NCBI RefSeq assembly: GCF_964204645.1
Contig: NW_027437448.1
Coordinates: 1-64,000 of the forward strand
Direction of reading: 5' to 3'
Origin: Tubulanus polymorphus
Lineage: Eukaryota > Animalia > Nemertea
DNA: 64,000 nt
The translations under genes and the position numbers were made by a program. Under the pieces are notes generated by a model. That model searched no databases. It was not told the DNA's origin and was given only the letters and a program-made list of their open reading frames with translations. Numbering within the stretch: the first letter of the stretch is position 1; every line of letters starts with the position of its first letter. Of the stretch, positions 1 to 44,800 are shown piece by piece.

Positions 1-1315
1 ACAGTTTACTGCGCGTTTAACGTCAATGTTGGCATGGCAATATGTATGACCAGTACTGCGAACTGGTGTGTATATATGGAGTCTATAAACAAAAGATGAA
101 GCCATGCGAGCGTGCGCCAGTGCGTGCGTGTGCTGGTCATCAACAAAGACACATTTTGTTATTCATAATGAATTAAATCAGTAAACAATCAATGAAGTAA
201 TCATATATTTATTCTATAGTTTGAATGCACTGTTCCAGGTCACATGAACTCTCGACGATGAGACCGATATAGGATTAGCGTGAATGCCGTCTTCTCTATA
301 ACTAATACGTATCAGTCAAAACTTGCTCAGTTGATACATGCATAACTCGAGTCGTTCTGCGTCAACAAGTGTAGTCATCATTTGGATTTGCCTATTTTGA
401 TACCACGAGGCTTCCACGGGTAGGTGGTCGGGTTAGAGAGACTCCAAGGGCTCGCCTGTTTGCTCCTAGTTATCGGATAATCTCGCTGTCTATTACCGTA
501 AAAGTACACGTGACCTCACGATACAAATAACAACTGATTATTACATATAAACAAGTTGTCGGGATTAGAGCGGTTTAAACTAAAGCTCCCCAGCGGTTCC
601 TATTGCATAATAGGCCTAGATCCAATTATACTAACAGGTTTAACTGAACTGAGGGTGGAGGAGGGTCTAGTCCAGTTACGTGTGTCAGTGGTATATCGGT
701 GTGGGTTCGCCATTCGGGTTCTTCTACCTACAGAGAAACGAACCATCTTCCTCGATGAACCACCCATTACACGAATATTCTATCGATTTTCTTACAAAAG
801 GTTCATATGTTTTCACGGAAATTATTGTCAGAGGCCGCAAATACTAGACGTCTTATAGAAAACCTCACTGAAACCATCCGGGATGAAGGAAAAAATGTGT
901 TTAAAACACCCACAAATTCAAAACATATTCAAATTACTCGTAATTAAGTTAATTACTCGTAAATTAATTAATTAGGCAACATTAATTATTTCTCTAAAGT
1001 CGTTCAACTTATTTAGAAACGACTGTATTCGTTTCTTCAAATGCGTGGAAGGACAGCAGTGTCTGATGTAACCGCTAGATGGCGAATAGGTCGTTCGTGC
1101 TCACCTGGCGCCTGACCTAGATATTTAGATGATGGATTAGACTTGTATTTACTCACTGCGCGCGTTCATATTTACATTTTAATCGACACAGGACGACGAT
1201 ACCGCTGATATTAGGAACTATGCCGCCGTGTATAAGATAACGCGAGGTGTTTTGTTATCTAAACTCAGTGTGCGCAGTTAGAATCAGAGCGATACGAGCG
1301 AGATACGATTTTAAC

Positions 1316-3384
1316 ATGGATTCACTGATTCCTATCGTACTAGTCTTACTGAGTCTAACTTGTACTCATGCTAATAATTACCAGAATGTAGGTGAGTATA
1401 ATGTGGGGGGAGAGGGACGGAGAGGGGCGGTTATAAAGGGCAAGTCGGAGACCCAGTTACAGGTATCGATTGAATGGTTGCCAGCACAGCAGAGTTCAGC
1501 GCAGTATCCGGCAGTACACTGCGTCTACTCGTGATGACGTCACAGCTGTGCGCGGCACTAAGTGGCGGGTTTGAATTCAAACGCTGAAAAAGATTTGCAT
1601 ATTCCTTATTTATTCATAATAAAAAGATATATTTCAACGGTTAAACAAGTGCAAGTTTAATGTATCGAATTTTGAGATAAGTTTTATGACCACAGTTTTA
1701 CAATAAGCTTCTTATACTGAGTTTTAAAAACCCGGAAGCAAAGTGCAATATAAACCGGCTTCCTCCTCAGTGTCTGTATAATAAATGTACTGATGTTACT
1801 GTATATTGTAGTGTATATGGATCAGTCATGTGGACAGACGATTAGAACTGATCAATATCCGGTTAGAGCGGGAATATTGAAATTGACATCGAAAGCTGCC
1901 TATGATAGAAACATGGATTGTAACGTGACGTTACAAGCTCCGGCGAATTCACACGTGTCTATTTACATCACAGATATTTCCGTAACTCCTGGTCCGGCAT
2001 TCACATCCCCGCCCTGTCTAACTGATAAATTAGATGTCCTCGAAAACAACGTCAAGAAACCGCTTTTACGTGAGTTTAAATTGTAGCAATCTCTGCAGCC
2101 TGTAAAACCACCTGTTACCTCTCAAACAGTCGTTCACACAGCACTGAGACATTTTTATAAAAAATGAACTACAAACACCAGACATAACACATTTTAATCA
2201 GCACACTTTCAAAAACGGATCATCCAACGTGTCCAAGACTTTGCCTGACACATTTTTTATTGAAAATGAACTACTAACACCAGATATTAGATATTTTATC
2301 AGCACACTTACAAAATCTGATCGTCCACACTTCACCACGCCAGAACGTTAAATGTCTGAAGGGTTTCAGGTTCCAGGAAGGGCTGCAGGTTTCAGGCTGC
2401 AGATTGTCTGAAGGTGTGCAGGTTACAGGCTGCAGATTGTCTAAAGGGGTACAGGTTACAGGCTGCAGATTGTCTGAAGGTGTGCAGGTTCCAGGCTGCA
2501 GATTGTCTGAAGGGGTACAGGTTACAGGCTGCAGATTGTCTGAAGGGGTACAGGTTACAGTCTGCAGATTGTCTGAAGGGTTGCAGGTTCCAGGCTGTAA
2601 ATTGATACCTGGTGGAATCCGAACCCTGGACACATCAGTTCTAGTTTTAATTCTATTTTTTAGCGAATGGTATTTGTGGCTCGACTGCGACAGCGTTAGA
2701 TACTAATCACAGATTCGTCAGATCAGATTTGAATAATTTACAGTTAAAGTTTACGAGTTCAGCAGCTGGAACTAGTGGAACAGGGTTTACTATTGTATTC
2801 ACACAGTTCGCAATACGAACAGGTCAGTAACCCCTTCCCCCCTAAATCTCCAACCTGTCCCCCCTCATCCAGTCTCTCCCTCCAGGTCTGTGATCTGAGG
2901 TATACTGCAAAACTAAATGTAAATCCAGGATGAATTTAACTGATCATTATTATTGCAGTGCATGTGGTCAGGCCCTGTACCTGGCTCTTGGGATCTCTCA
3001 GTTCCTAATGAATCTCACACAGCCCACCCCCCACGCCCCCCCCCCCACGCCCCCCAGATGAGTTCAACTGTTTGTTTATTCTATACAGGTGACTGTTTAA
3101 CCAGTGAATTCCAGTGCGGAATTGGTGCTGATTTAGCTTGCATTAATAAACTGCTGAAATGTGACGGAGAAATTAATTGTAAAGACGGAACTGATGAATT
3201 CATTAATGGCAAAAAATGTGCAGGTAATAAAACTACGAACCGTCTAATTAATTATCAGACTAATTAATTAATTAATTAATAAACTAATTAAGTTTTTATG
3301 TAATTTTCCATCCTAGGAGTTTGTCACCTCGGAAGTATCCTCCTTATTATTGTCGCCTGTATCCTAGCAACGATCGTTAACTGA
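1316..3384 (+). CDS. Secreted/surface CUB + LDL-receptor class A domain protein (5 exons; short hydrophobic, possibly GPI-signal, C-terminus)
   Basis: Exons 1316-1391, 1812-2069, 2664-2822, 3089-3223, 3317-3384 join in phase with GT-AG ends. Signal peptide MDSLIPIVLVLLSLTCTHA; CUB-like C..Y.RNMDCNVTLQAP..C.TDKL..ICG..GFTIVF; LDLa CLTSEFQC..CINKLLKCDGEINCKDGTDE; AATAAA at ~3612. Confidence 0.8.
2354..2598. repeat. 33-bp intronic minisatellite (~7 copies)
   Basis: Unit gtctgaaggggtacaggttacaggctgcagatt repeated within intron 2 of the CUB/LDLa gene. Confidence 0.9.
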
Positions 3385-3503
3385 TGGACGTCTGATGAAA
3401 TTGTATCGAGTTTTAATCAGAAAAGAAGGGGTTAATTTCAAATACAGACATAAATATATAGAAATGATTGGACAATATTTACATAAACTCATTGTTGATT
3501 GAT

Positions 3504-3561
<58 letters not shown>

Positions 3562-4026
3562 ATCCGTATATATTTGATCTAGATAAAATCAACTTTTTTG
3601 ATTCCCTATTTAATAAACTATGCAAATAATGTCTGGCAGTATTTATTGATTATACTGTGTATTGATTAGTGAATAAATTATGCTTTGCTTCCTTAGAGAA
3701 CCTTGAGTCCTGTTCATGATATTTCGTTGGTACCACAATTCGTCAGTGGTGTAGTCGCTCTCGGGGGCGGATCCAGCATTTTGTAGGGGGGGGCATGCCA
3801 CGTACGCCCCCATTCGGATATCCGCCACTGGCTCCCCAAAACCTGGGCTGGTTCCGCAGTCTCAGCTAAGATCTACCAGTCTAAGACCCTATTCTAAGCC
3901 AAACTTACAGCTTAACGCTATAGTTAAGATTTAAGACCACTTTTATTGGAAGTCGTTCTACAAAGCGTAACGCAACGATCTAATCTTAACCGAGGTTGTA
4001 GATCAGGGTTTAAGAAAGCAGTTCTG

Positions 4027-4320
4027 TAGAATCTACATCCATCTGGCTGCAGTCGAGCCTATCTAGGACAGATATCTAGTTCGGCGTTCTAGAAATCTAC
4101 ATCCATCTGGCTGCAGTCGAGCCTCAGATATCTAGTTCGGCGTTCTAGAAATCTACATCCATCTGGCTGCAGTCGAGCCTATCTAGGACAGATATCTAGT
4201 TCGGCGTTCTAGAAATCTACATCCATCTGGCTGCAGTCGAGCCTCAGATATCTAGTTCGGCGTTCTAGAAATCTACATCCATCTGGCTGCAGTCGAGCCT
4301 ATCTAGGACAGATATCTAGG
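4027..4320. repeat. Minisatellite with alternating ~64/56-bp units (120-bp higher-order period)
   Basis: tagaaatctacatccatctggctgcagtcgagcct... recurs; lines 4081-4200 and 4201-4320 are near identical. Confidence 0.9.
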
Positions 4321-4447
4321 CACACATCGGTGTTCGGCTAATGTAGAGTAAAACCATGGTAAAATGCTGGAAAAGTCACAAGAATCATTCATTGTGAAAT
4401 CTTCATCCAGCCAGGCTTATTGTATCGATTGTTTGTTGTAATTACAG

Positions 4448-5166
4448 AAATGTTGCCATGCGAGACAGCCGCGGCAGGCGAGGACAATGGAGGAGGGCAG
4501 TGTAAAGCGCCCCCTACCACCACGTGTTATGAAGCTATGATTGGTTTCGGTGTTGCTGTCGGTTTAGATATTTTACTGTTGATATTAGTGTTTGTATTTT
4601 GTGCTAAATGGAGACAAGCAGTTTATTCTTATCAATTAGAACACGACCAAAGATTAAATGTAAGTATAGACATGACGTGACTTCCTACACAGTCCTGATC
4701 CGAGGTTTGAGCAAATAACAGCCGGTTTTCTGCTGGGGAAGTACCGTGTTTGTATCAGGACGATTCCTTTCCTTTCAAGTAGTTGTCGGGGGACTGTCTG
4801 ATACCGGCGCACCGAGTTGTAGAGCACCCGGGGTGCACGATACGATATATAGATAAAAAGATGGTCACTTGTATTATTTGTAGGAAGAAGGAAAGCGATG
4901 GCAGTGGTCAGGTGATGCACCTACATTAGAATCATTAGTTTACTGAAACCTGTTCAACCGCGCTGCGCCGAGTACAATTTATACCGTACAGTGCTGCCAC
5001 CCCACTGTAGTTTGTTTCCCACCCTGGCACGCGAATACCTAAAAACGAGAGCTATCCGTACGGTGCTGCCATCATTTCACAAACTGACTACACTTACCAG
5101 AGCAGGAATCAAACTCCTCGATTCTTCAGTACTAATAAACACGACTTGTATAATAAATTATTTTAA
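4448..5166 (+). CDS. Probable alternative 3' exons of the CUB/LDLa gene encoding a transmembrane helix and cytoplasmic tail
   Basis: Acceptor attacag at 4447 is phase 1, matching the donor at 3223; exon 4448-4659 encodes AMIGFGVAVGLDILLLILVFVFCAKWR (TM plus basic stop-transfer), donor gtaagt; candidate last exon 5101-5166 ends in TAA overlapping AATAAA. Confidence 0.55.
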
Positions 5167-5325
5167 TAAAATATTTTACAAATAATACGATATTAATCTG
5201 ATTGTTTTCTGGTAGTCGCCCGCAGGGTATCTACAGGTATCTACAGGTCACTCATGCACTAACATGCTACTAAACTCACAACTATAAACTCCAGTCTCTA
5301 GTCTTTTAGTCTCTAGTCTATTCCG

Positions 5326-8300
5326 TTAAAAGATCTCACGTAATTTCTGTATCCATAGCGATATCGGTAACCAATGGTAACGTTGTTGTAATTGCGGATG
5401 GAATAAATCGAAATCGGCTTTTTGTAATCTGGTTAAATACGCCTCTAATCCCGCCTGAAAACAGACAACACAATCAAACAATCCACAAGTGAAATATCAG
5501 GTAGAAAGAAATAGAAATAAACTTACTGTTGATAAAAATGCTTTATACGCATTTGGAGGAAGATCAGCTTTCAGAGACCTGGCCTACAATAACAATAGTT
5601 ACACACAGAGTCAATCAGAGTCAGAGTCAGTGTGAATCACCGGTGTGATGTATGTGAATCACCGGTGTGATGTATGTGAATCACCGGTGTGATGTATGTG
5701 AATCACCGGTGTGATGTATGTGAATCACTGGTGTGATGTATGTGAATCACCTAACAAACCTTAGTTAAATGTTGATGCGCGATGCTCGCGATATCATAAA
5801 CTAAATCTTTCACTTTCTGCTCTTTTATTCCCCGAATTAAATCTTGTTGAGATACATTGTACTGAAAAAATAAATTAACTCATGATATATCAAAAAATAT
5901 CGAGATACACGTGTAAAATATCGATATATTTACAAACCTGTATCATTAGATCGAGTGGTAGATAAACATGTTGACGACTCGAGTGAAATAAAGTAGATCT
6001 CAATAATGTAACAATACCATGTGTTTTACCAATATGACTAGCAACATGATCAGCATTTATATCCTTTATACCTGAAGTTTTAATAAACAAACAATTTATT
6101 AAACGCACAGTTTTAACCCTTTCACTGCTGAATAATTAATACCTGCAGGAGATAATTTGAAATTTAAAAAGAATTCCCACCCACTGTGTTGAATAACAGG
6201 CATATATCGCTATAGTGCATCTACACCGCGGTGCAGTGTATTACAGGCATATATCGCTATAGTGCATCTACACCGCGGTGCAGTGTATTACAGGCATATA
6301 TCGCTATAGTGCATCTACACCGCGGTGCAATGTATTACAGGCATATATCGCTATAGTGCATCTACACCGCGGTGCAGTGTATTACAGGCATATATCGCTA
6401 TAGTGCATCTACACCGCGGTGCAGTGTATTACAGGCATATATCGCTATAGTGCATCTACACCGCGGTGCAGTGTATTGTTAGTTACCACTATGTTTGACA
6501 GGTGCTGCCATCTTTCAATAGATATAAAAACTAATAACATCAATACACCGCACTGTGGTGTAGATGCACTGAAAAGGTTCATCTGTGTTGAGATTCAGAT
6601 ACAAACCTAAACTTTCTAGAATCAAATAATAAATCGGAGTCACTGAATTATCACTGTATTCTTCAACTTCATCCATATTCTTAAACTGTTGATTATTCAT
6701 CCGCGATTCCTTTAAAAATGAGTAAATGATTGATTACTCACACGTATAGATGAACAGTAGGAATGAGTAATTGAATATATACTCACTCTAGCTATGAGTA
6801 ATCTCATTAACCATTGTTTAGATATGTTGTGTCTTTTGACAGCCTGAAATATATGAATATTGATCTGTGGCTGGCTTCAAATCGAAAATCTTACAAAGAT
6901 TCGTGAGAAACAAAATATCGAAAGAAGAAAAAAAGTTTTAATTCTTTATGTACAAAAAAATTTGTTGCTAGTTTATTTTCAGTTTTTTTCGACTATGATA
7001 TTCACGTATTAGACATCAGATTTAAGACATCAGATATAAGGAATAAGAAATAAGTGTTTAGTCATCTTCACTTTCATCGTGTTGATTTTGAATCTGTTTT
7101 ACTGGAACAATTGAATCGATTAAAATAATTTCTCGTAATAATTCCACTAAATTCTGCAATAAAAGTAATTTGCCGTAAACCGATTCTGTGAAATCATTTT
7201 CTGAGACGTCGTTCAAATTTCCAGTTCGACAGTTGATCATTTTAACACAATCCACGTCTAAATATTCATTTATTTGTTGTGAAAGTTTTATAAACGATGA
7301 ATTATTGTAAGAATTCTCACAAATAATTTGCGGAACGATTAAAACAGCATCGCTTAACATTCTACACAATAAACTAACATCGGACGGTAACCGTGACAAC
7401 TTGCGTAAACTACGACTGATTAGATATTCAAATACGCCACCAGGGGGCAGTGCAGTCGTCGTTGCCCTGTAATTTGTAGTACTACATGCGCCACTAGGGG
7501 GCGGATCAGTGTTACTAATCAGATATTCGGGAAGTTTAAAAGTTTTCAAATATTTTAAACAGTTTCTGAGTGAATTACAGATAGTTTTATATTGACAATG
7601 ATCAGGAGCGCAGATACTCAGTGAATGAACTGAATAATTACATTTATTCTCCTCAATATTAAACGAATTGTTGAATATAAAATATAATCCATGATTCATT
7701 GGTTTAACGGAGTCAATGACACCGATATTTAAATCATCTGAGATGAGCTCGGTAAAACTGGTGACTGGTAAAACACGGATCAATCTCTGTAATAATCTCA
7801 AATCATCGACATCTATCGATTCTAAAACTGATATTTCATATCGTCGATATTGAGATCTCTGAGATTGCGTTAAACTGCTCGTAATCAATATCAGATCAAC
7901 TCCTAAATCTTTAATACGTTTAAACCATCGATCAGCAGCTGATTGTCTCCATAGCAACGACTCTACGATATCGCTTTCATTGTTGATTTCAATTGTTGCC
8001 GTTTCATTTTTATCGCATTCATCAACAATGATGAATTTAATATCGGTTGCTAATAACGATGGAAATTGAGTCAGTTTATTCCCAGGAATAAATAAACCTG
8101 GATTAACTCGTGATATCGATATATCACTATCAATTGATACAGCGGTGAGATTATCAAAATACTCAATTATAAACTCAATAACTGGATAATTGAGATGATC
8201 AGCAGCAGCAGCAGCAGCAGCAGCAGGTGTGCTGCTGCTGCTGCTGCTGGAATCAATGATAAACTGTGATAATAAATCTGATAATAATTCACTGATGCAT

Positions 8301-9809
8301 GAATTGTATTTTCCTGTTAAACTAGTTTTAAATATTTCTGTTAATTTATCTTTATGTAAATTAATCCTGGAACAATGCGATAAAATCTCATCGAGTAAAC
8401 GTCTCTGTATATCAACAGATCGATACATCGTGCATTGACGCGCTAGCGCCACCATACTGCAACCACTCGTACTAATTATATTCACTAACTCTCCGAGAAT
8501 CAAAATAAACGTTTTAATTCCGTCACCGACGCCTTTATGATGACGCAGCGCCCCCTGGATTATCAGTTTATCAACGGGATGATTATAATTTAAACTAGAG
8601 AGTATGAGATATCCATCAGCGGTGATTAAACTCCGTCCCGATGATGTTGTAATCAGAGTGTACGTCGAACATGGTCCAAATGAACGTTTCAATAAATGTT
8701 TTAATGTTGAACAGACTCTAATTAATTCCTTTAATCCTACTAGTTGCTCATTCTCTTCACAGGTGGCGCTCATCTTAAACCTATATCAAATAAACCAATT
8801 TACCTATAAAAGCCTTAATACCTCTACTACCAAAACCACAATTGGAAGAGAGGGAGGGAATGGGAGAGATGGAGGGAATGGGAGAGAGGGAGGGAATGGG
8901 AGAGAGGGAGGGAATGGGAGGGGGACGATGGGAAATAGAAGGAAATGGGCTAGGGGGAATGAGAGAGGGAGAAAGAGAAGTGACTGAGAGCAGGGGATGA
9001 GAGCAGGGGAGAGGGGGATGAGGGGAAAGAGAAGGGACTGGGAGAGGGGGATGAGGGGAAAGAGAAGGGACTGGGAGAGGGGGATGAGGGGAGAGAAAGA
9101 GGAGGGACTTGTAAGTTATAACTACATGTATAAGTAATGAAATAGTGAACTTACTTTAGTTAATTCCAAAGCGATCGGAGTGTGTGGTGGTTTACCCTAA
9201 AACAAGTCAATAATGAGTGATATAATAATGAGAGAACTGAGTCCGACCCCCACAAATAGTTTATAGATTATACAAACCTTGTATATATTATTGATTGAAT
9301 CTTTCCAGAATTGAATCCTCATTAAACCAATGTTTGAATCACTAACAGTATCATGAATCTAGTATCCAATAAAACAAAAAATATTAATAGATTATTTAAC
9401 ACAGAGGGCGGAATAGGAAGCAGGCACTGGCAGGTGGGGGACACCAAACTGACCTGAGATATTTCCACATTTGCAGCTCTTATTGCGAACACCGTTGATC
9501 TTGTAAGTCGAGGTAGAAGAAGAGTGGCTAAAAAATTCTCATAATCTGATTTACTACAAAAAAAAACAAGTCAAAAGAAGACACATTATTATTTGATTAG
9601 AACCGTCGAAGAACCCTAGTCCCTAGCCCTGGGCCTCTCGTATGGATTCTACTGTTTGTTTAAGGAGATAAAACTAACCGCACTAGATCCATACAGTATT
9701 CACTATGAGTTTTATATACGCTTTCTGAATAATGTTTCACATGGCGCCCGATATTTTGCAAAACATTCGAAATTTTATTTTTCGGCAAAAAAATCATGGG
9801 CGCCGCCAT
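5326..9809 (-). CDS. NDUFAF6: NADH dehydrogenase (ubiquinone) complex I assembly factor 6, multi-exon
   Basis: Spliced minus-strand translation: MAAPMIFLPK..EYCMDLVR/KSDYENFLATLLLP..VFAIRAANVEISQ/..GKPPHTPIALELTK/AVKRHNISKQWLMRL/..GIKDINADHVASHIGKTHGIVTLLR/..DIASIAHQHL/..LQKADFDLFHPQLQQR, colinear with remembered human NDUFAF6. Confidence 0.93.
5631..5751. repeat. 22-bp minisatellite in NDUFAF6 intron
   Basis: gtgaatcaccggtgtgatgtat x5. Confidence 0.9.
6117..6577. mobile_element. Degenerate piggyBac-like MITE containing a 47-bp tandem array (6197-6478, 6 copies)
   Basis: Left end TTAA|CCCTTTCACTGC, right end GCACTGAAAAGG|TTCA (imperfect TIR/TSD); internal unit is an inverted copy of the right subterminal sequence. 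Confidence 0.55.
7058..8773 (-). CDS. BBS10: Bardet-Biedl syndrome 10 chaperonin-like protein, intronless, nested in NDUFAF6 intron 4
   Basis: 571-aa ORF with chaperonin motifs SFGP..LITADG..LSSL..NHP and GDGIKTFILILGEL (BBS10-type GDGxKTF), LPPGGVFE, and C-terminal ESVYGKLLLLQNLVELLREIILIDSIVPVK; own AATAAA on minus strand at 6977-6972. Confidence 0.85.
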   Translation of the reverse strand: MSATCEENEQLVGLKELIRVCSTLKHLLKRSFGPCSTYTLITTSSGRSLITADGYLILSSLNYNHPVDKLIIQGALRHHKGVGDGIKTFILILGELVNIISTSGCSMVALARQCTMYRSVDIQRRLLDEILSHCSRINLHKDKLTEIFKTSLTGKYNSCISELLSDLLSQFIIDSSSSSSSTPAAAAAAAADHLNYPVIEFIIEYFDNLTAVSIDSDISISRVNPGLFIPGNKLTQFPSLLATDIKFIIVDECDKNETATIEINNESDIVESLLWRQSAADRWFKRIKDLGVDLILITSSLTQSQRSQYRRYEISVLESIDVDDLRLLQRLIRVLPVTSFTELISDDLNIGVIDSVKPMNHGLYFIFNNSFNIEENKCNYSVHSLSICAPDHCQYKTICNSLRNCLKYLKTFKLPEYLISNTDPPPSGACSTTNYRATTTALPPGGVFEYLISRSLRKLSRLPSDVSLLCRMLSDAVLIVPQIICENSYNNSSFIKLSQQINEYLDVDCVKMINCRTGNLNDVSENDFTESVYGKLLLLQNLVELLREIILIDSIVPVKQIQNQHDESEDD

Positions 9810-10225
9810 ATTTGTATTAATCCGCATCCGTTTTGGAACGATTTGTTATCTCAATAATTGATGAAAACCATCTATAAATAAACTGAATTCTAAGAAATTA
9901 TTTGATGTAAATTGAGATGAGATTTTCAAATTGCTTAAGTTGGCTTCAAGCAGCTGATTAATTTCATGGCGAATGAAGACGCCTTTTACTCGTACGGAAT
10001 ATCGGACACCGTCGCGGACTCATACGGACACTGGTTCGGATACTGCGGAACATTAATCGGAACTAGGGTTAGGGTTAGACTGGTTGACGTTCTAATGTAG
10101 ATGGCGCAAAATTCAACCGAGAACCAGTCTAGGGTTAGGGTTAGGAGGGCGCCACATGACGGTATAAAGTTGACGCGTGTATCTGGATCAGTACTGAACC
10201 CGCTGCTGCTGCAGATGTTGTTAAA
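9810..10225. promoter_or_regulatory. Probable bidirectional promoter (NDUFAF6/BBS10 versus TMEM208)
   Basis: Only ~415 bp between divergent start codons; YY1-like ATGGCG motifs and two (TTAGGG)2-like tracts (~10064, ~10130). Confidence 0.6.
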
Positions 10226-11305
10226 ATGCCTGTAAGTTTTCAACCCAGCGCTTGTTAAATAGCAAGAGTTTTATATCGTATTTGAAACTGAATTTTATCA
10301 CAACAAGATAAACCGTAAAAACTCTTCGAGACCGAAATTCAACCAAAATACAACAGAAATCAGAATTCACAAATCAATCAATTAAAAACATTTTATTTAT
10401 TGTTTTTTTTAAGCCTAAAGGAAAACAAGCGACAAAAGGTCAAAAACAGATCGTGGAGGAAAATAAATCAACATTGAATTATTATTTATATATAATCACA
10501 GCAGTTAATGTAAGTATTACCGGAATACCCGCCTGCCGCAGCCACCTGTCGGGGTGACGCTCGCTAATCAAAGTAATCTGGACTGATTTGTATTTGTATT
10601 TTAGGCTGTCTATATTTTACTACAAGTTTTACTATTCTGGGATTCATTCACTTTATTTTATTGGGTAAGATTTCGAAGAAGTTATAAGCTGATTCGTAGT
10701 TATAACTATACTATAGATGGCGTTGTTGTTGTATTTATTACAGTTTTTATACGGGCTAGCTCTAACAGTATCTATAGGATGCTATCAGTTCATGGCGTAT
10801 ATGGCAAAAGCTAAATATGGAGCGTCTGGAAACCTCATTGATGGAGGCATTGATTTAAATATGGAATCAGGAATGGCTGAGTATGTAATTACAATGAGTT
10901 CTCTCCGGGTTTAAATCTGGCCCTGGGTTATAGTTTAAACCAGGTGTAAGACTTTAAACTCGGTCTGTGGTTCGCTGGTAAAGATATAATTTTGATATTT
11001 TTCAGACACACAAAGGATATGATTATATTAACTGCTGTATCTCAGAGTTTGTCTCTTATATCTGGATATTTCTGGTTGTTACTGCTTCTCGTAAGTGCCT
11101 CCCCCTCTCCCCCTTCCCTCGTCCCAATAGCTCCCTCTAGTGGTTTATCGTGTAATCGTTGTATTTTCAGGGTCCAATTCGAGGGTTCTATTTATTATGG
11201 GTGAATATTTTATCTCCGTGGTTCTTCGCGGAACCGCCTCCAGAAATGGACGAGAAAAAAAAGAAAAAATTAGAGAGAAAACAACAGAAAATTCGCTATA
11301 GATGA
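10226..11305 (+). CDS. TMEM208: Transmembrane protein 208 (SND2 family)
   Basis: Spliced MP/PKGKQATKGQKQIVEENKSTLNYY..GNLIDGGIDLNMESGMAE/HTKDMIILT..FWLLLLL/GPIRGFYLLWVNILSPWFF..DEKKKKKLERK; canonical splice sites. Confidence 0.93.
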
Positions 11306-11582
11306 TTTAGAGATTGATCCATCAGCACCAGTAACAGCAGCAGCTTTAATCATCACCACCAGCAACAGCAGCAACTTTAATCATCACCACTAGCAACAGC
11401 AGCAGCTTTAATCATCATCATCATCACAGCTGCTGCTTTTAACAATTAGTTTTGAAATAAATTCCATTTTATTTATTAAATTTGTAGTTATTTAGTTGTC
11501 AATGAGTAGTTGCTGTGTGATTCTCTACTCTATCCACTCGAGGATTCCCCTTGGAATCTTGATATGGTTGGGGATTCCCCTT

Positions 11583-18662: not shown

Positions 18663-19267
18663 ATGACGGTTGTACCTCGTAATTTCCTATTACTTGAAGA
18701 GTTAGAGGAAGGACAGAAAGGAGGTGATGGAAATATCAGCTGGGGTTTAGAAAAAGACGATGATATGACTTTAACAACTTGGACTGGAATGATTCTAGGA
18801 TTGCCTCGGGTAAGTATCATACCTCCTCACCTCCTCATTATACCTCCTCACCTCTCTCATTATACCTCACCTCCTCATCTCTTGATTGTTTCAATATTTT
18901 CAGACGACTTGTGAAAATAGGATCTATAATTTACGAATTATATGCGGACCTAAATATCCTAAAGAGCCCCCTATTGTCAGCTTTACTACTAGAATCAATA
19001 TGGTGGGAGTAGATGGATATGGCAATGTAAGTTCTGAATCTAGTTCCACAGTTGTGGACTCATTTCCACAGTAATGTGGACAGAATGGAAGTGGTTAATG
19101 ATGCTGATATATTTGTATGATTTCAGATTGATATGAAACGTTTCTCATTTTTCAACCAATGGTCTAAAGATTCTAGTATCAAAACAGTTCTGACTGAAAT
19201 ACGAAAAGCAATGGGTCATAAAGAGAATGCTAAATTGCCTCAACCTCCGGAGAATTCAACTTATTGA
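18663..19267 (+). CDS. UBE2V: Ubiquitin-conjugating enzyme E2 variant (UEV1/MMS2 family), copy B
   Basis: Exons 18663-18809, 18904-19026, 19127-19267: [46 protein letters not shown]/..[16 protein letters not shown]/..[15 protein letters not shown]; same intron positions as copy A. An upstream exon may exist (acceptor at 18657). Confidence 0.92.
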
Positions 19268-19532
19268 TTCTATATCTACAAACAACAATCCTACACAACA
19301 ACTCACATTGAACTGAGATACTGAAACATTTATTTAATGTCATTATGTTACACTAGATGTCGCTAGTGTATGATTTATTTATAAAGAATTACGTACCCCA
19401 AATACATTGTATATAAAATGTAGATAAGTTTTAAAAAGTAGGAAATAAAAAATATACTTTGTAATAATATTAGCAGTTAACTTTGTTAGCATTGGTGGTT
19501 AACACTATGATTAGAGTTAACTGATGCAACTG

Positions 19533-21374: not shown

Positions 21375-21889
21375 ATACGAGGATTGATTAGTTTTTCGGG
21401 GGCTTATAGTACTAGGATTGATTAGTTTTTCGGGGGCTGATAGTACGAGGATTGATTAGTTTTTCGGGGGCTTATAGTACTAGGATTGATTAGTTTTTCG
21501 GGGGCTGATAGTACGAGGATTGATTAGTTTTTCGGGGGCTGATAGTACGAGGATTGATTAGTTTTTCGGGGGCTGATAGTACTAAGATTGATTAGTTTTT
21601 CGGGGGCTGATAGTACTAGGATTGATTAGTTTTTCGGGGGCTGATAGTACGAGGATTGATTAGTTTTTCGGGGGCTGATAGTACTAGGATTGATTAGTTT
21701 TTCGGGGGCTGATAGTACTAGGATTGATTAGTTTTTCGGGGGCTGATAGTACGAGGATTGATTAGTTTTTTGGGGGCTGATAGTACGAGGATTGATTAGT
21801 TTTTCGGGGGCTGATAGTACGAGGATTGATTAGTTTTTCGGGGGCTTATAGTACTAGGATTGATTAGTTTTTCGGGGGCTGATAGTACG
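21375..21889. repeat. 34-bp minisatellite (~15 copies) containing the last codons and stop codon of AMT
   Basis: Minus-strand unit (c/a)gtactatcagcccccgaaaaacTAAtcaatcct; the first copy is the true YYQPPKN* end. Confidence 0.93.
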
Positions 21890-24800
21890 ATGCAGCTACA
21901 AACGGCATTTTACTAACTGTCGCCTGTACGAGTTTATTTCGCACTTTTATTTGAACTTTCGTATTATTTTTACTGAACGGTGTTTCTATGTAACCCATAG
22001 AGATGTTTGTTTTCAGTGTTGGTGACGGCGAACCGCTCGTTATTTTACCAATTTCTTTTTCACCAGATTCATCAAAGATTACAGCGCCACCTACAATAAA
22101 CAATACATTACAGAAATCAGAATCAATTCTTGGTGAACATATGGATACACCTGGGCCTGGATGCTTACCCTGAGCAGGAGCCCTGGATATCCGCCTGCCG
22201 GATACCCACCCACCAGAACCCGGATACTTACCCCGGGTTGGAGCCCCGGATACCCGCCCACCAGACCCCGGATACTTACCCCGGGTTGGAGCCCCGGATA
22301 CCCACCCACCAGAACCCGGATACTTACCCCGGGCTGGAGCCCCGGATACCCGCCCACCAGAACCCGGATACTTACCCCGGGCTGGAGTCCCGGATACCCG
22401 CCCACCAGAGCCCGGATACTTACCCCGGGCTGGAGCCCCGGATACCCGCCCACCAGAACCCGGATACTTACCCCGAGCTGGAGCCCCGGATGTTGAAACA
22501 AATCCAACTCTTTTCTTTGTCGGTTTATTCTTTAATTGTTCCAATATGATTTGAGCCCCGGGAAAGTCCGCAGTTTTCCTCCTACGTTTACCTGTATCCA
22601 AATCAATAAAACAAACACAAAACTGAGTAAATAAGGAATAAGCTTTGGTTAGTTGGATGTGGTCCGGACTGGTCGGGACCGGTGTGTACCTATAGTCCAC
22701 GCGAGAGTGCCCTCTATTGGTGTAGTATTCTCATCTATATCGTTTCCGTATAAACACAATCCAGCCTCTAATCTCAGTGAATCACGTGGTCCAAGTCCGG
22801 CTAATTTCACATCCATTGTTTTACTAGACAGTAATATCTCACAGATTTCAGCAGCTTTATCTTCAGGTACCGATAACTAGAAATAGATCGCACATACACA
22901 TAGACAGATACCTGAGATAGACAGATACCTGAGATAGACAGATACCTGAGATAGACAGCTATCTGAGATAGACAGTTATCTGAGATAGACAGATACCTGA
23001 GATAGACAGATACCTGAGATAGACAGCTATCTGAGATAGACAGATACCTGAGATAGACAGATACCTGAGATAGACAGATACCTGAGATAGACAGCTATCT
23101 GAGATAGACAGCTATCTGAGATAGACAGATACCTGAGATAGACAGTTATCTGAGATAGACAGCTATCTGAGATAGACAGCTATCTGAGATAGACAGCTAT
23201 CTGAGATAGACAGATACCTGAGATAGACAGATACCTGAGATAGACAGATACCTGAGATAGACAGATACCTGAGATAGACAGATACCTGAGATAGACAGTT
23301 ATCTGAGATAGACAGCTATCTGAGATAGACAGCTATCTGAGATAGACAGCTATCTGAGATAGACAGCTATCTGAGATAGACAGCTATCTGAGATAGACAG
23401 TTATCAGATAGACAGTAATTGAGACAGCCACCAGATAGACAGACAGCTGTCAGATATTTACCTCTACCCCGTCCTCACCAGTATAACCACATCTCGTCAC
23501 ACGACAGTTTTTAATTCCACATAAAGTTGTTATGACACTCGTCATAAAATATAATTTACTGAGATCGGTTTCAACGAGTGGCTGTAACGCTTTTACCATT
23601 CCGGGACCTACAATACACAATACATACACAATACACAATACGTCGTCACAAAGGAGACCCTTTAATCAGCTGCAGCCCATGATAAACTGGTCAACTCTTA
23701 ATCAGCTGCAGCCCCTGATAAACTGGTCAACTCTTAATCAGCTGCAGCCCCTGATAAACTGGTAAACTCTTAATCAGCTGCAGCCCATGATAAACTGGTC
23801 AACTCTTAATCAGCTACAGGCCTCGATAACTATTTTACCTTGAAGAGCTAATAAAGCCATATTGATTTTTTCTACATTCACATCTAAACCTTTACCGATC
23901 ATTTCACTTTCTTTTGCCTGGAAATAGAAAATAAACAATTGAATGAATCATTTCTATCGCCATGAATCACTCATTATTCAAACAATCGTCATAGTTACCT
24001 TCATATTATTGAAATCTTTATCAGCGCAGGCAGCATTAGAAACTACGTATAAATAATCTTCATTAGTTTTAGTGATAATTAAATCATCGTTAATTCCGCC
24101 ATTATCGCGAGTAAATAACGATAGAGTTCCCTGATTATCCTTCAATCCTTCGACATCGGCCACTGTTAAACTCTCCATAAATTCAATTCTATTTTTACCG
24201 GTGACTTTAGTTTGAAGCATGTGAGACACGTCAAATATCACTGCTTTATTACGGCAATGTTCATGAGATATAATCAACGAATCTTTATATTGAACTGGCA
24301 TCAAATATCCGGCGAACGGAACCATTTTACCACCTTGACTGACATGAAAATCATATAAACATGTCTTCTTCAAATCAGCCTAAAATATATTCAATGAAAA
24401 TCAACAATGTATTAAAATAGCCTACAGGACTCTACCACCAACGATGGAGCCATCCTCCGTGCTCCACTCCTCTTCCCACAGTGGAGCCATCCTCCGTGCT
24501 CCAGACTCCTCTTCCCACAGCGGAGCCATCCTCTGTGCTCCAGAATGCACCACCCACCATGATGGAGCCATCCTCGGTGCTCCAGACTCAACCAACCACC
24601 ATGATGGAGCCATCATCCGTGCCCCAGACTCGACCACCCACCAACGATGGAGCCATCCTCGGTGCTCCAGACTCCACCACCCACCATGATGGAGCCATCC
24701 TCTGTGCCCCAGACTCCACTACCCACGTTGGAGCCATCCTCCATGCCGGCCCAGACAGTGATTTGGATTATCTGGTGCCAGAATATTCTAAATTGGCCCC

Positions 24801-27195: not shown

Positions 27196-30100
27196 ATGTT
27201 GTATTTAGAAGATTACGTTGAAAGTGAGTTGATTTAACTTTGTATTTATTCAATTAGGGCAATGTCTGCGTGTCGGCCTCATAGTTTGAATATTTGTAGA
27301 AAGTGAATTCTGATAAATCGCCCTCACTGTTTCCTGCACCTTGTTTTACCACTTAAATTGTTTATTTAGTGATAGAGAATTTGCCTATGGAGATGAGGGA
27401 ACGATTTACTGAAATGAGAGAAATGGATTTAACAGTTCAAAGTATGTACATTGCATATAATTGCACATTTGTAGTTTTTATTTCCACCAGTTGGTGGCAG
27501 CACCTGCTGGTCGTACATCACTGCTATACCGTTGAATGTCCTTATATACATTGTATCTCTAGATGCTATGGATTACTTGGATGGTCAAGTATCTGGATTT
27601 TTCAAGAAATGTCAACAGCCAAATTTCGACGATAATTGGAAGAACGAGCAATTTGAAAAAATAAAAGAGGTAAAAAACTTTATTGTGCGAAGCTCCGCTC
27701 CTGGGAGGCATCTCAGCAGGAACAGGAGCAGGGGTGGGAGACTCGTAAAAAGTCCATCAAATTTTTTGTTTTCGGGTGCCATTTTCATTTTGTCACTAAA
27801 GAAAGTTGGTGCATTTCAATGCAAGATTGTGCCTTGTATTGCCTGGAGATCAAAATTCCCAGTAATAAGTTTGTGGATCCAGGGAGACTTTTTTTTTTTG
27901 AGTGAAACTTTGTGCATTTGAATACAGGAGTGAGGGTGCCTTATATTGCCTATTTGGAGATCAAAGTTCCCTGTAATAAGTTCCTCAAAATTGGACTGTG
28001 AATCTACCCCTGAGCTGGGTAAACAGTCTTACTTGTCTATGTCTAGGATGTTAGATAACTCTTGATAGGTCGTAATTTCTTAATGATGTTTTTTTAGGGT
28101 TATTCAAAAGCGGTAGAAAATGCGGATGAAAAAGTTCAGATGGCGAATCAAATTTATGAAATGGTAAATATTGAGATGAATCTCAGTTTGTTTTTTTCTC
28201 TCAGAGTTTGGTTTGTTTGAAATAGATTTAATTATTTTTAGGTCGATCGACATCTCAGAAAATTGGATCAAGAATTATCTAAATTTAAGATGGAATTAGA
28301 GGCTGATAATGCGGGAATCACGGAAGTTTTAGAGAAACGTAAGGCGTTCGTATCTAACCCGAGTTTTCACCGGATCGGTCGAGACGTTTCACAGGATCGG
28401 TCGAGGGGTTTCACCGGATCGGCCGAGGGGTTTCACCGGATCGGCCGAGGGGTTTCTCCGGATCGGTCGAGGGGTTTCACCGGATCGGCCGAGGGGTTTC
28501 ACCGGATCGGCCGAGGGGTTTCACCGGATCGGTCGAGGGGTTTCACCGGATCGGTCGAGGGGTTTCACCGGATCGGTCGAGGGGTTTCACCGGATCGGTC
28601 GAGGGGTTTAACCGGATCGGTCGAGGGGTTTCACCGGATCGGCCGAGGGGTTTCACCGGATCGGTCGAGGGGTTTCACCGGATCGGTCGAGGGGTTTCAC
28701 CGGATCGGTCGAGGGGTTTCACCGGATCGGTCGAGGGGTTTCACCGGATCGGCCGAGACGTTTCACAGGATCGGTCGAGGGGTTTCACCGGATCGGCCGA
28801 GACGTTTCACAGGATCGGTCGAGGGGTTTCACCGGATCGGTCGAGGGGTTTCACCGGATCGGCCGAGGGGTTTCACCGGATCGGCCGAGGGGTTTCACCG
28901 GATAGGTCGAGACGTTTCGCCGGATCGGTCGAGGGGTTTCACCGGATCGGTCGAGGGGTTTCACCGGATCGGCCGAGGGGTTTCACCGGATCGGTCGAGG
29001 GGTTTCACCGGATCGGTCGAGACGTTTCGCCGGATCGGTCGAGGGGTTTCACCGGATCGGTCGAGACGTTTATTTATAATCTAATCATATATTTATTAAT
29101 TATAGGATCATTAGAAATGGATAATCCACAACCGGGACAAAACCATCGAGATCGTGAGTAGTATTTACTGCACTCCGAGTTACACCACAGTTATCAGTAA
29201 CTCCCAGCTGTAGATCTGTGTCCGGCATGATTAAAACTTTCAGGGTGGTGCCACTTACCGGTACCTGGAAATCGGGGAAATTTCTGTTGAAAGTCAGGGA
29301 ATTTAAAGTAAAAGAAGTAAAGAAGCCTAAAATCTGCGAAACATGTTGAGATTTTGTCAGAGGATATGTTGAGATTGCTAGAGTGCGCGTAAAATCAAAC
29401 AGTTTCTGTCTTTTGTTACATTTTTGACTGCGTTAATTGATTGGATTCTTAGCAGATCAAGTGTGGGATAACATAATTCATGTCAGGGAATAGTCACGGA
29501 AATAAGCAATTCAAATAAACGTGGCTCCCCCTGTTGGGACTTAGCTTTGACAAAAGTGGCTCCCCCTAGACTTTGGGTTCAACTTTTAATTATTTTCAGG
29601 AAAACGACATCACATTTCATCATCATCTAATAACGTCGAGAAGAAACTAATGACGGAGAAAGTTTTATCATCGATAGCGAGTGAAGTGGCGACAGGTGGC
29701 GCTGGTTTAGCGGCAGTCGGAGTGAGAGAATCAAATATACAAACACAGTCTACAACTAATAATACATCATCAACATCTAATACTACTACATCTAACTTCA
29801 ATTATAACTATGGTTTAGGTATGTATATCCCCTCTCCCTTCCCTCCTCTCCCTCCCCTCTCCCTTCCCTCAACATGTGAGTTTAATAAATCTATTTTCAG
29901 GCGATTATTTACAAGGTCAAAGTCGTAAAGTTGAAAAACCGAAGCATAAATTCAACAAAAATAAAGGTAAATTTTATTGTATTGTACAGTAGACTTCGCC
30001 AAATCAAATCCCATCAACTTTGATAAAAATCGCAACTGGTTGAAATATTTTTAAACATCAAACTCAGTATCACTGAAGGCGGACACATTTTTACGGCTCA

Positions 30101-31064
30101 AAAAGATCCGACTTAAACAGGGTCTACTCACCGTCCAGGCTCCCCGGAGTCCAGGCTCCCCGGAGTCCAGGCTCCCCGGAGTCGAATTCATCAGGTACCG
30201 ATATTAGAATTGTGTTTGTTAACAGGTACGAGTAGCAGTGCTGCATTAGCAGCTGCAGCGTCACAAGCGATCGCAGCTACACAGAATATGCAACAAGGTC
30301 GCCGAACCGCCAGTTTAAAGGCGAGTTACGAAGTTTTAGCTAAAGGAGGGACGTTGACGGACTTTACAGTAAAACAAGAACCTGGATTACAAACATCGTC
30401 TATAGAACCAGTAACGCCACCTACACCGGTTATAGTATCATCATCTTCATCTTCGCGCAGGAATAAAAAGTAAGTCTATCTCAATGTTAGTCCGGGATTA
30501 ACACTGCTAGTCCAATCGATGTTAGTCCGGGATTAACACTGCTAGTCCAATCGATGTTATTCTCGGAACAACTTTTTCACCTTGTAAAACGATTGATCTC
30601 ATATAACAGGAGTTCAAAGAAACAACTTTTGTTACAACAACAACAACAAGCAGCTGCAGCAGCGGCGGCAGCAGCAGCTGCAGCAGCTGAACAGACCGAT
30701 CCACAACAACAAACAACTGATTCTACGACGCAACAACAATCGACCGATGAAGTAATGGTCGATGAAAATGGTCAACAAGTCGACTGGCAATACGACCCTT
30801 CAGAACCGAGATATTGTTTATGTAATCAAGTTTCTTATGGTGAAATGGTTGGTTGTGATAATGAAGATGTAAGTAGCAATATTTGTCTCTATTTCTGATA
30901 ATACGCATTGTTTTCGGGCTGAGCCTAAAATTCTAATTGTATATTTATTTCAGTGTCCTATAGAGTGGTTTCATTATGGTTGTGTTAATCTAACTCATGC
31001 TCCTAAAGGTAAATGGTATTGTCCGCAATGTTTAGCTGCCATGAAACGTAGAGGACGAAGATAA
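27196..31064 (+). CDS. ING3: Inhibitor of growth protein 3 (NuA4/TIP60 PHD-finger subunit)
   Basis: [167 protein letters not shown]. Confidence 0.96.
28360..29070. repeat. 22-bp minisatellite (~32 copies) in ING3 intron
   Basis: cgaggggtttcaccggatcgg(t/c). Confidence 0.95.
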
Positions 31065-41800: not shown

Positions 41801-44800
41801 TTGATCCACTCTCGGTCGAGCGATTTTGCTCCGATTGTATATAAAATATATATGTTTCTACATTTGAGCGCGATTGAATAATGATTTGAGATCGTCGCTA
41901 TAATTTTCAAATCATCTCTCACCGTACGCCCGAATAAGGTGACTCTAACGTAATTTCGTGACTTCGTATAATTTGACGTTCCTGACGCGAGACCGTACGG
42001 AGATGCACCCGAGGTGTAAACTTTATGAACTGGAGAAATGATTAAATTCAGGAGTTCAACTCTTGACATGATTAATCTTATACAAGTCTTACATTTTCGT
42101 CTTTTCTGAACAAGGAGAGGAGTTCCACCGCTATTTTCTGTCTCAGTGCCAATTATTATTATTCGTCTTAATGAGAGGACCAGTTCGATCGGGGACGTAT
42201 CGGCAGTAGTTACATGAAGACCATCAATCGAGGATTCGAACCCCCAATCTTTGTATCGACTGACGGCCTTTATCCAGGGGAAGTCATGACAAAGTGTCAT
42301 ACGGAGCGAAGGTAGATGTTGGGAGAACTAGGTTCGATCGCGTGCGAAATCCTGGCCAGGTAGTCGCCTACGAGGATGCTGAGCCCTGATCATGGAATGA
42401 GAAGACTGAATATTTTTATTTGATTATAATTTCGACAAGAACTGATATCTTTTCCCTGAGGAGGAATTACTTCCCCCAATATTTTCGCATAACCCGATTA
42501 TATTGTCTCAGGGCGAACCCTAGTAGCAAACGCCTATTGCATCTATTATATACGTAAACATATAAAGACCCGCTACCCAGGAGAGATACGCTACATTTGC
42601 TATTCTACCAGTTTGGATGGATTACCGAATAGACTAGTACCGTTATAGGCCGACTCTACTGTATATCACTTGGGGCGAGACCGCCACCTCTACTGTATAT
42701 CACTTTGGGGTGAGAGGACGTTACCAGAATTATCCAACTCAAAACAGAACAAACTATATTTTGAAGAAGAATTCACGATTGATTTTTATTAATTATCTTA
42801 TGTTGCGATACATCATAGGACGATTCACACTGTAGAGCATCAAACATTCGCTTTAACAACTTAAATATCGGTATAAACGGAAGATGCTACATATTCACAT
42901 AGTTTCAAGCTGCATATTTACAATTTCATATTATAATATTCATTGGCCCTGTTACTTATTTGATTGGTATTTTTTTTTCATTTGGTATAACAATCTCATC
43001 ACACCTTCTGGAGACAAAACAGGGGCTTTGATTTTGAAATCAAAGATTCACATATAGTTGTGTGATTGGTGGTCAAATAAACAGAGTTTTCTTGTGGAAA
43101 TTTTATGTTTTGGTAGTTTTCCCTGTATGAATAGTTGTTTTTAAACCCAACTTCGTACAATACCATTATAGTTTATCAATGTTAGCTATGCATTTTGTTA
43201 TTTTAGATAAATACATCTCGGGGACCATCAGCTCTCAGCGACGATGTGTATGAGATCATGCTTTCTGTGCTAAGTGGAAAGAAGATGCTCTCATCATATC
43301 AAGTTACTTCCGGTGACAAAAAATATGATGCTGTGCGCAAAAATGCTGCAAATAAGTTATCTTCAAAAGCTTACATATGTCAAAAAGTTAACAACAAAAA
43401 TGAAATTATATTCCTAAAAACGAGAAAAATTATTCCAAAATCATCAGCCATTGCCTCAATTATTGATCAGTACCACACGAGCATGGCTGGATCAGGTTCG
43501 TCCAAATTAGTAGGAGCAATCAGCAGCAGTTTCCATGGTATATCAAAGCAAACTATCCAAGATCATCTTAATTCGAAGCCAACGCACACGATACGGAATC
43601 CATTATTTACGAACAAGCCACCTATTAAGAATATAACAGCATCTGCTCCGATGAGCCGGGTACAAATAGATTTAGTACTAATGGAAGAAGTTGAGAACGA
43701 AGGATCTACGTACAGATATGTGTGCAGTGTGATTGACGTATTTAGTAGGTTCCTTTGGTTACGCCCAATTCAGAACAAAACATCGAAAACGGTGGCCGAA
43801 GTGACAAAAAATATATTCTGTGAGTTCGGCAACCCGCAATACGTACAGACCGATAATGGAACGGAATTCAAAGGAGAGTTTGATTCATTTTTGAAGACTG
43901 CAAAAATAAAGCATATATTTGGTTCGCCTAGGCATCCCCAATCACAAGGAAAAGTAATGATTATATTTTGATTGAAAAAATTGGGAAGTAGTTTTTGTAT
44001 TACAAATTTAACAATGTTTTTACCGTTCTTTACAGTCCGAAAGATCACATGGGAGCTGGAAGAAGATGCTTCGGTACCTACTCGGGAGAGATGATGAGAC
44101 AAATTGGGTTGCGCACATTCCTGAGCTCCAGAGAATTATGAATCAACGATCACATAAAGCATTTTGTATGTAATTAGGGTATTCTGCCTACCTTTGTTAG
44201 AAACCTTATTGTTATCCTAGGTATCATAATGATAGCCCTACTCCTCTTTTTCAGCCGATAAGATGACTCCTTTCGAAGTATTTTTTGCCAGGAAGCACAA
44301 TCAAGGTGAAGGCCTTCAAAATGGTCAAATGACGAAAGCAGACTCCGTAGATGAAGAAAATACTTCAGATGTGGCTTCTTCAAATGTGAATACAGTAAAA
44401 CCCCTTGCATGAATACCTCCCTATAGTGAATACTTCCTATAATGAACACCCTATGTGCGGTCCCAAAACCTAAAATACATCCCATGTCACATCATTACCT
44501 AACCCTCCCCATAGTGAACACTTTGCTTGGTCCCGATGGCGTTCACTATACAGAGGCTTTACTCTACTTCAGATGTGACTAGTAATAATACATGTTGATG
44601 ATGTGTTATATAACACATGAAACTTTTGTACTTTAAAATTTCAAGCTCACTGCCTGGGAGAATGAATCCGCTTCAAAGCGAAAAGCAGCTGAAGCACTTT
44701 CAACTGTATATAATGCTGCAATGGTCAAGGGACATAAGAATAGATACCCTTGTTCCCAGTATGAACCTGGACACCGTGTTTTGGTGAATGTAAGTACTTG

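Follow-up and report, generated by a model that had tools for sequence, protein, structure and literature searches.

A BBS10 gene nested in intron 4 of NDUFAF6 in the nemertean Tubulanus polymorphus is very likely spliced onto host coding exons

We analyzed a window of 64,000 nucleotides (nt) of Tubulanus polymorphus DNA (RefSeq assembly GCF_964204645.1, contig NW_027437448.1, positions 1 to 64,000), in which an intact BBS10 gene lies within intron 4 of an intact NDUFAF6 gene. This nested layout is established. The shared transcription unit is real and well supported, and it is unusual in sharing coding exons. BBS10 very likely serves as an alternative last exon of the host, reached by a splice from NDUFAF6 exon 4 to position 8780. 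To the fuller explanation, in which this splice creates a message with two open reading frames (ORFs) and BBS10 is probably translated by reinitiation after a truncated NDUFAF6 frame, we give about an even chance. The support for the link between the two genes is an RNA contig, not the sequence layout.

Results

RNA evidence for a probable splice from exon 4 to BBS10

The spliced joints of the sequencing run X2 are the sole reason for reading it as RNA, and it represents one run of one sample. Its contigs carry eight canonical joints listed, three in NDUFAF6 and five in the neighboring gene TMEM208. Pieces of the runs X3 and X4 cross exon-intron borders and show none of the X2 joints, and the run X5 contributed no pieces. 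The features needed for the argument are the following.

9679..10019, minus strand: NDUFAF6 exon 1, extent according to the X2 contig, ends in phase 2
9454..9553, minus strand: NDUFAF6 exon 2, joint in X2, with an SQS_PSY piece (E 0.0016), likely shared
9278..9358, minus strand: NDUFAF6 exon 3, joint in X2, likely shared
9155..9196, minus strand: NDUFAF6 exon 4, ends in phase 0, last shared exon and presumed fork point of the transcript
6844..9154, minus strand: NDUFAF6 intron 4, 2311 nt, GT..AG
8843..9096, minus strand: C/T-rich tandem repeats in the skipped part, ending about 60 nt upstream of the BBS10 acceptor
8781..8782, minus strand: AG acceptor at which the X2 contig enters the BBS10 exon
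8774..8780, minus strand: GTT TAA G, with the final codon and the stop of the NDUFAF6 frame; a single base separates this stop from the BBS10 ATG
7058..8773, minus strand: BBS10 coding sequence, 571 amino acids, intronless, same strand as the host, within intron 4
6972..6977, minus strand: AATAAA, a putative polyadenylation signal of BBS10, with an ATTAAA farther on at 6942-6937
5326..6843, minus strand: NDUFAF6 exons 5-10, the alternative last-exon choice, identical to RefSeq protein P0002

The splice is carried by record 2 of X2 (498 nt), in which letters 32-498 lie at 8778-8312 with zero mismatches. Placing letters 1-31 at 9183-9153, which covers the exon 4 end and two further letters compatible with either side, gave a sum of squares of 0.006. 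Five alternative placements (an unplaced leader, unspliced upstream sequence, and exons 1, 2, and 3) gave sums of squares of 21.9-53.3. When start and length were left free, 3 of 50,655 placements fitted; they are near-identical, and all lie at 9152/3-9183/4. Four spliced records account for all 22 depth bins of X2 (6634-11297) within 0.06. The BBS10 contig that was kept bridges 8779-9152 to exon 4, and a splice of the nested gene to a host exon is deduced from this contig together with the depths.

The shared X2 contig runs unbroken through exons 1-4 with a length of 565 nt and therefore ends one base past exon 4. This base is the last one common to the acceptors of exon 5 and BBS10, and we infer a fork of the transcript at this point. 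Contig depths (86.2 for the shared contig; 38.3 and 29.1 for BBS10) were used for placing the pieces only, not as expression levels. Cover by X2 is absent on NDUFAF6 exons 5-10 and on 8183-8311; as the filter can drop records, this is no finding. The word share of 0.53 is not decisive either (0.453 without and 0.514 with exons 5-8, repeats not counted).

A previous sequence-only reading of the window had proposed BBS10 either as an alternative terminal exon of NDUFAF6 or as a gene trans-spliced to a spliced leader at 8781. The contig supports the former, as it joins exon 4 to the 8781 acceptor. A foreign leader is not what the kept contig shows (sum of squares of 21.9 for the unplaced leader versus 0.006), although short or minor leader tips could have been pruned in contig assembly. 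The same reading had called the two proteins competing outputs. This holds for the layout, in which the two last exons are mutually exclusive; a regulated choice goes beyond it.

Junction, acceptor, and 3' signal

Exon 4 spliced to 8780 reads ..ELTK-V-stop, and the BBS10 ATG follows one base after the stop. The acceptor-GTT-TAA-G-ATG layout, the phase 0, and the ELTK-V-stop had all been described from the sequence, and rechecking of the coordinates confirmed them. Phase 0 is common to the ends of exons 2, 3, and 4, which lead to the same V-stop; only exon 1 would be in frame with BBS10. Another AG at 8775-8774 abuts the BBS10 ATG and would give an in-frame fusion if used; its use is not seen in the kept contig. 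Without the TAA, the NDUFAF6 frame would end 5 codons past the BBS10 ATG anyway.

The acceptor had been called clean and placed downstream of a long pyrimidine tract. Its position is correct, but its pyrimidine fraction (-22..-3) is 0.50 and thus below the 0.55-0.80 of all nine NDUFAF6 acceptors. The C/T-rich stretch exists as well, but as the tandem repeats listed above rather than as a tract adjoining the acceptor. The AATAAA claimed for BBS10 is present; such a motif occurred in 549 of 2000 shuffles of the 214-nt gap 3' of BBS10 and is near chance. On this side, an X2 contig reaches 6990; contigs cannot show transcript ends.

A probable message with two reading frames

The spliced message has 12 AUGs upstream of BBS10, seven of which open ORFs of at most 17 codons, and an NDUFAF6 frame of 119-125 codons. 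For this frame, RefSeq uses the ATG at 9827, and an ATG in strong context (A at -3, G at +4) follows at 9809. The context of the BBS10 ATG is good in its own right. Direct scanning to BBS10 is unlikely because of the strong-context ATG at 9809 and the 12 upstream AUGs. Stop and start are 1 nt apart and lie within the 20-nt range of coupled reinitiation (PMC10275272, in part; sources cited in this way are represented by part of their text), though this spacing is near chance. Cellular cases of reinitiation without TURBS (a termination upstream ribosome-binding site) exist (PMC5972666). As scanning through the strong ATG is unlikely, coupled termination-reinitiation is the likeliest route to BBS10, and judged from the sequence it has roughly equal chances of being right or wrong.

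The NDUFAF6 leader (window 9940-10019) also contains two short upstream ORFs (uORFs) before the main start, one of 10 codons at leader position 52 and one of 6 codons at position 148.

Discussion

Proposed explanation

Exons 1-4 are likely transcribed from one promoter region that lies between NDUFAF6 and TMEM208, and BBS10 molecules would carry exons 1-3 from this promoter. After exon 4, a splice to 6843 would yield the full NDUFAF6 message and a splice to 8780 would add BBS10 as the last exon. Use of the 8781 acceptor with cleavage near 6970 would exclude exons 5-10, which presumably leaves one product per transcript. Ribosomes that end the truncated NDUFAF6 at the TAA may restart at the BBS10 AUG one base on. 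Such reinitiation would give a low BBS10 output, which may be sufficient for an assembly chaperone. By the general exon-junction rule, stop codons in the last exon escape junction-dependent decay. The lack of an intron in this BBS10 puts the early stop into the last exon, so that the message would escape this decay. BBS10 likely entered the intron by insertion or local rearrangement and was likely captured by the host promoter. We saw no sign of a functional link between the NDUFAF6 and BBS10 proteins.

A stricter version seems to us possible, with chances somewhat short of even. In this version, BBS10 is promoterless and made only via TURBS-free reinitiation after the 119-codon NDUFAF6 frame, and the splice choice at exon 4 decides whether an assembly factor of complex I or an assembly chaperone of the BBSome is made. 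If true, an intact and conserved gene would here depend on reinitiation after a long ORF in a natural cellular setting.

Evidence against the proposed explanation and alternatives to it

Several observations weigh against this explanation. The joint from exon 4 to 8780 was deduced from the depth figures of one run and not viewed directly; only 31 placed letters stand on the exon 4 side, two of which fit either side, and contigs can neither phase exons 1-3 with BBS10 nor show transcript starts. That one or the other of the two codons preceding the BBS10 ATG is a stop has a chance of about 0.12, and a stop within 20 nt one of about 0.40. The leader lacks the UGGGA core of TURBS throughout, and shuffled versions of the junction fold more than the junction itself (z +2.0). 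Mammalian uORFs that permit reinitiation usually have fewer than 30 codons (PMC5972666, in part), compared with 119-125 here, and in a human bicistronic reporter, the downstream ORF gave about a thousandfold less protein (PMC11751868, in part). Conservation of the nesting was not found either. In a scan of metagenome contigs, we kept 80 NDUFAF6 loci of 85 confirmed, most of which are short, of a distant non-animal type, or without intron 4, and none of the 80 had a BBS10 match. Seven loci were read at the place of intron 4; two of them (L074 and L078) have an intron at the same position, which is empty and only 260 and 268 nt long. Hence, genes that have this intron do not generally hold a nested BBS10. 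Among the accessions of relatives, no species was represented for both BBS10 and NDUFAF6.

Even with the splice accepted, the BBS10 mRNA that is translated may be short at its 5' end and effectively monocistronic, starting in exons 2-4 or intron 3 or carrying a leader joined to the acceptor of exon 4. An AUG is missing from exon 4, no more than one 10-codon and one 30-codon uORF would remain after a start in exon 3, transcript starts are invisible in contigs, and assemblers prune short tips. We nevertheless consider such a message rather unlikely, given that the contig of exons 1-4 is unbroken and that the four spliced records explain every X2 bin with no intron 3 sequence left over. A search of the literature on nemertean spliced leaders found Nemertea only in a reference title (PMC2481426, in part). 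With a short 5' end, nothing but its unusual 5' exon would set the locus apart from ordinary nested genes. A promoter of its own within intron 4, active in ciliated cells, would reduce the exon 4 splice to a read-through by-product that yields little BBS10 protein. The weak acceptor, the near-chance stop-start layout, the good context of the BBS10 ATG, and the single sample are all compatible with this, but the BBS10 contig kept in X2 joins exon 4 across 8779-9152, and no X-box-like motif lies in 8780-10300 (6 matches in the window). An intronic promoter is therefore unlikely in our view.

It is improbable that BBS10 is made by a minor in-frame splice, either from exon 1 to 8780 (a 617-residue product) or from exon 4 to the AG at 8775-8774 (a fusion of NDUFAF6 residues 1-118 to BBS10). 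The BBS10 part of the kept contig begins at 8778 and not at 8773, and it comes from exon 4 and not from exon 1. Both fusions would carry the NDUFAF6 N-terminus, likely a mitochondrial presequence and wrong for a basal-body protein, and an NDUFAF6 piece was found in 0 of 149 BBS10 relatives. For such a splice speak the frame of exon 1, which is open into BBS10 from phase 2, the AG abutting the ATG, the use of an AAG acceptor at NDUFAF6 intron 5, and the loss of rare variants from contigs. Just as improbable is the translation of BBS10 from the long message via leaky scanning with hopping over uORFs, via internal entry, or via a +1 frameshift at the stop. The short ORFs opened by seven of the 12 upstream AUGs would suit hopping, and leaky scanning was favored in the bicistronic reporter (PMC11751868, in part); the strong context of the ATG at 9809 argues against scanning, and the product of a frameshift would bear the host N-terminus.

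Comparison with known systems

unc-17/cha-1: The closest known system is the C. elegans cholinergic locus, in which unc-17 is nested in intron 1 of cha-1 (PMC3875643 and PMC2776167, both in part). As in our locus, an unrelated gene lies on the host strand inside an intron and upstream exon sequence is shared; alternative splicing and 3' end formation choose between the products, as they probably do here. In C. elegans, however, the exon in common is not translated and both products belong to one pathway, according to the same partial sources, whereas no functional link is evident here. Four exons coding for at least 118 host residues are likely shared in Tubulanus, and the nested gene stands behind a long ORF. 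A monocistronic message with an untranslated shared exon is not what we found, as exon 4 is coding and exons 1-4 form a 119-codon ORF.

Mouse GAD: In an embryonic GAD variant, alternative splicing also sets a stop beside a start (UGAUG) and creates a bicistronic cellular mRNA, but both ORFs come from one gene and a putative TURBS is present (PMC5972666). In contrast, BBS10 is an unrelated whole gene, its start does not overlap the stop (TAA-G-ATG), and UGGGA is missing.

Viral TURBS: Caliciviruses and the BM2 of influenza B share with our locus a long upstream ORF, an out-of-frame second ORF, and a stop and start within 20 nt (PMC10275272, in part). Unlike these, the Tubulanus junction is cellular and made by splicing, and it has neither a UGGGA core nor a stable upstream fold.

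Drosophila dicistronic mRNAs: In stoned and Adh-Adhr, two coding frames are likewise translated without trans-splicing, but there the first ORF is a complete gene (PMC2776167, in part). Here, the first frame yields a shortened form of the host protein, with the full host mRNA as the other possible product.

Few cellular mRNAs depend on reinitiation behind a long ORF to make a real protein, and their rules are unsettled (PMC10275272 and PMC5972666, in part). The locus offers a compact natural reinitiation case with a conserved second gene, if the proposed route holds, and would illustrate one way in which an intronless gene without a promoter can persist, by capturing the coding exons of a housekeeping gene. 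A nested, shared-exon, bicistronic arrangement had no match in the literature searched, which lay outside subscription journals. For BBS10 together with NDUFAF6, the listings and abstract starts, with subscription journals and supplements outside the search, concerned human and rodent disease genetics only. Among the matches listed for the Tubulanus polymorphus genome, no title or abstract start concerned this locus. RefSeq transcript models may already draw the splice from exon 4 to 8780.

Identity of the nested gene

The sequence-only reading had placed an intronless BBS10 at 8773-7058, which is right in position and identity. The ORF carries a Cpn60_TCP1 (group II chaperonin) domain (PF00118, E 3.4e-34). 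Matches in the PDB are CCT and thermosome chains, the best with an E of only 6e-14. A full HMMER scan returned 465 relatives at E <= 0.001. In 20 match clusters that we checked, five were named, four as BBS10 and one as 'TCP1 theta-like'; the named BBS10 relatives come from Lineus, Saccoglossus, Glandiceps, and Branchiostoma. The proteins of Lineus (XP_064618621) and Saccoglossus (XP_002741267) are similar over the full length at 28-29% identity (E 2e-31 and 4e-34) and share the lysine in the GDG motif. The best structure neighbor in the Atlas is BBS10 (TM 0.82), and in the Atlas feature search, an MKKS cluster ranked third (0.95). Compared with canonical CCT, MKKS, and BBS12, BBS10 is the closer match to the protein by its named relatives and its Atlas neighbor.

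BBS10 proteins keep the Gly-Pro dipeptide of ATP binding and have an altered GDG phosphate loop (PMC2846930, in part). The Tubulanus protein has GP at residue 33 and the BBS10-type phosphate-loop motif GDGIKT at residue 83. Among 149 BBS10 relatives, GDGxK occurs in 76, and 61 are without a GDG match. The ORF is complete from its own ATG, because the alignments of its relatives start at query residues 10-18. Human BBS10 has two coding exons (PMC5534436, in part), in contrast to this copy, which is a single exon nested in NDUFAF6.

A Branchiostoma protein named BBS10 (P0143) has about 100 extra N-terminal residues before its chaperonin match, and these are not NDUFAF6. Within BBS10 (window 8200-8249), opposed CAG/TGC triplet runs encode poly-Ser and then poly-Ala; the runs fold as a hairpin that attracts spurious miRNA matches. 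Rfam returned 21 weak matches, none of which reached the gathering score. Word-based searches with BBS10 retrieved only BBS10 itself. In a quick tree, the query stands on a long branch, and the tree was not used for relationships.

Identity and structure of the host gene

On the minus strand, NDUFAF6 consists of ten exons with a spliced frame that is open to the stop. The exons behind intron 4 are as follows.

6843-6787, 6709-6607, and 6071-5938, minus strand: NDUFAF6 exons 5, 6, and 7
5861-5760, 5583-5527, and 5454-5326, minus strand: NDUFAF6 exons 8, 9, and 10

Exon 7 is identical to the RefSeq NDUFAF6-like protein P0002 of Tubulanus polymorphus, and the whole predicted product matches it. 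The identity of exon 7 to Haliotis is 47-48%. The SQS_PSY domain (PF00494) was found on three of seven scanned exons, each singly under the curated cut-off. The gene is a full-length NDUFAF6 orthologue with an SQS_PSY domain, and both the NDUFAF6 assignment and the host intron at 9154-6844 given from the sequence are correct. The other introns (n = 8) measure 72-535 nt. Intron 6 (window 6196-6580) contains a 47-nt tandem repeat in 6 copies. Beside it lies an element that is palindromic and present in very high copy; many contigs of X2, X3, and X4 have loose ends at this element, which looks like a repeat of the miniature inverted-repeat transposable element type.

TMEM208 and other features of the window

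10145..11379, plus strand: TMEM208 (Pfam PF05620), spliced at five GT..AG joints in X2; it lies head to head with NDUFAF6
10020..10144, no strand: gap of 125 nt between the divergent contigs of NDUFAF6 and TMEM208

PF05620 bears out the name TMEM208, which the sequence-only reading had also used. The gap is likely a shared bidirectional promoter; contig ends cannot show the true starts. It contains two TTAGGG-like pairs (~10064-10078 and ~10129-10146) and one AGATGGCG, which is YY1-like.

Further genes lie elsewhere in the window. The plus strand carries a gene with CUB and LDL-receptor class A pieces at 1793-3400 and a compact gene at 18663-19270, an 83-residue piece of which was scanned without a Pfam match; the latter presumably resembles a ubiquitin-conjugating enzyme variant. 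Exons at 27475-30898 on the same strand include a tandem repeat at 28300-29100 and resemble an ING-family PHD protein. At 21864-24379 on the minus strand, an aminomethyltransferase (GCV_T) gene has a repeat-filled intron that stays open in frame. An ORF with an integrase core (rve) at 43207-43971 is likely a transposon remnant.

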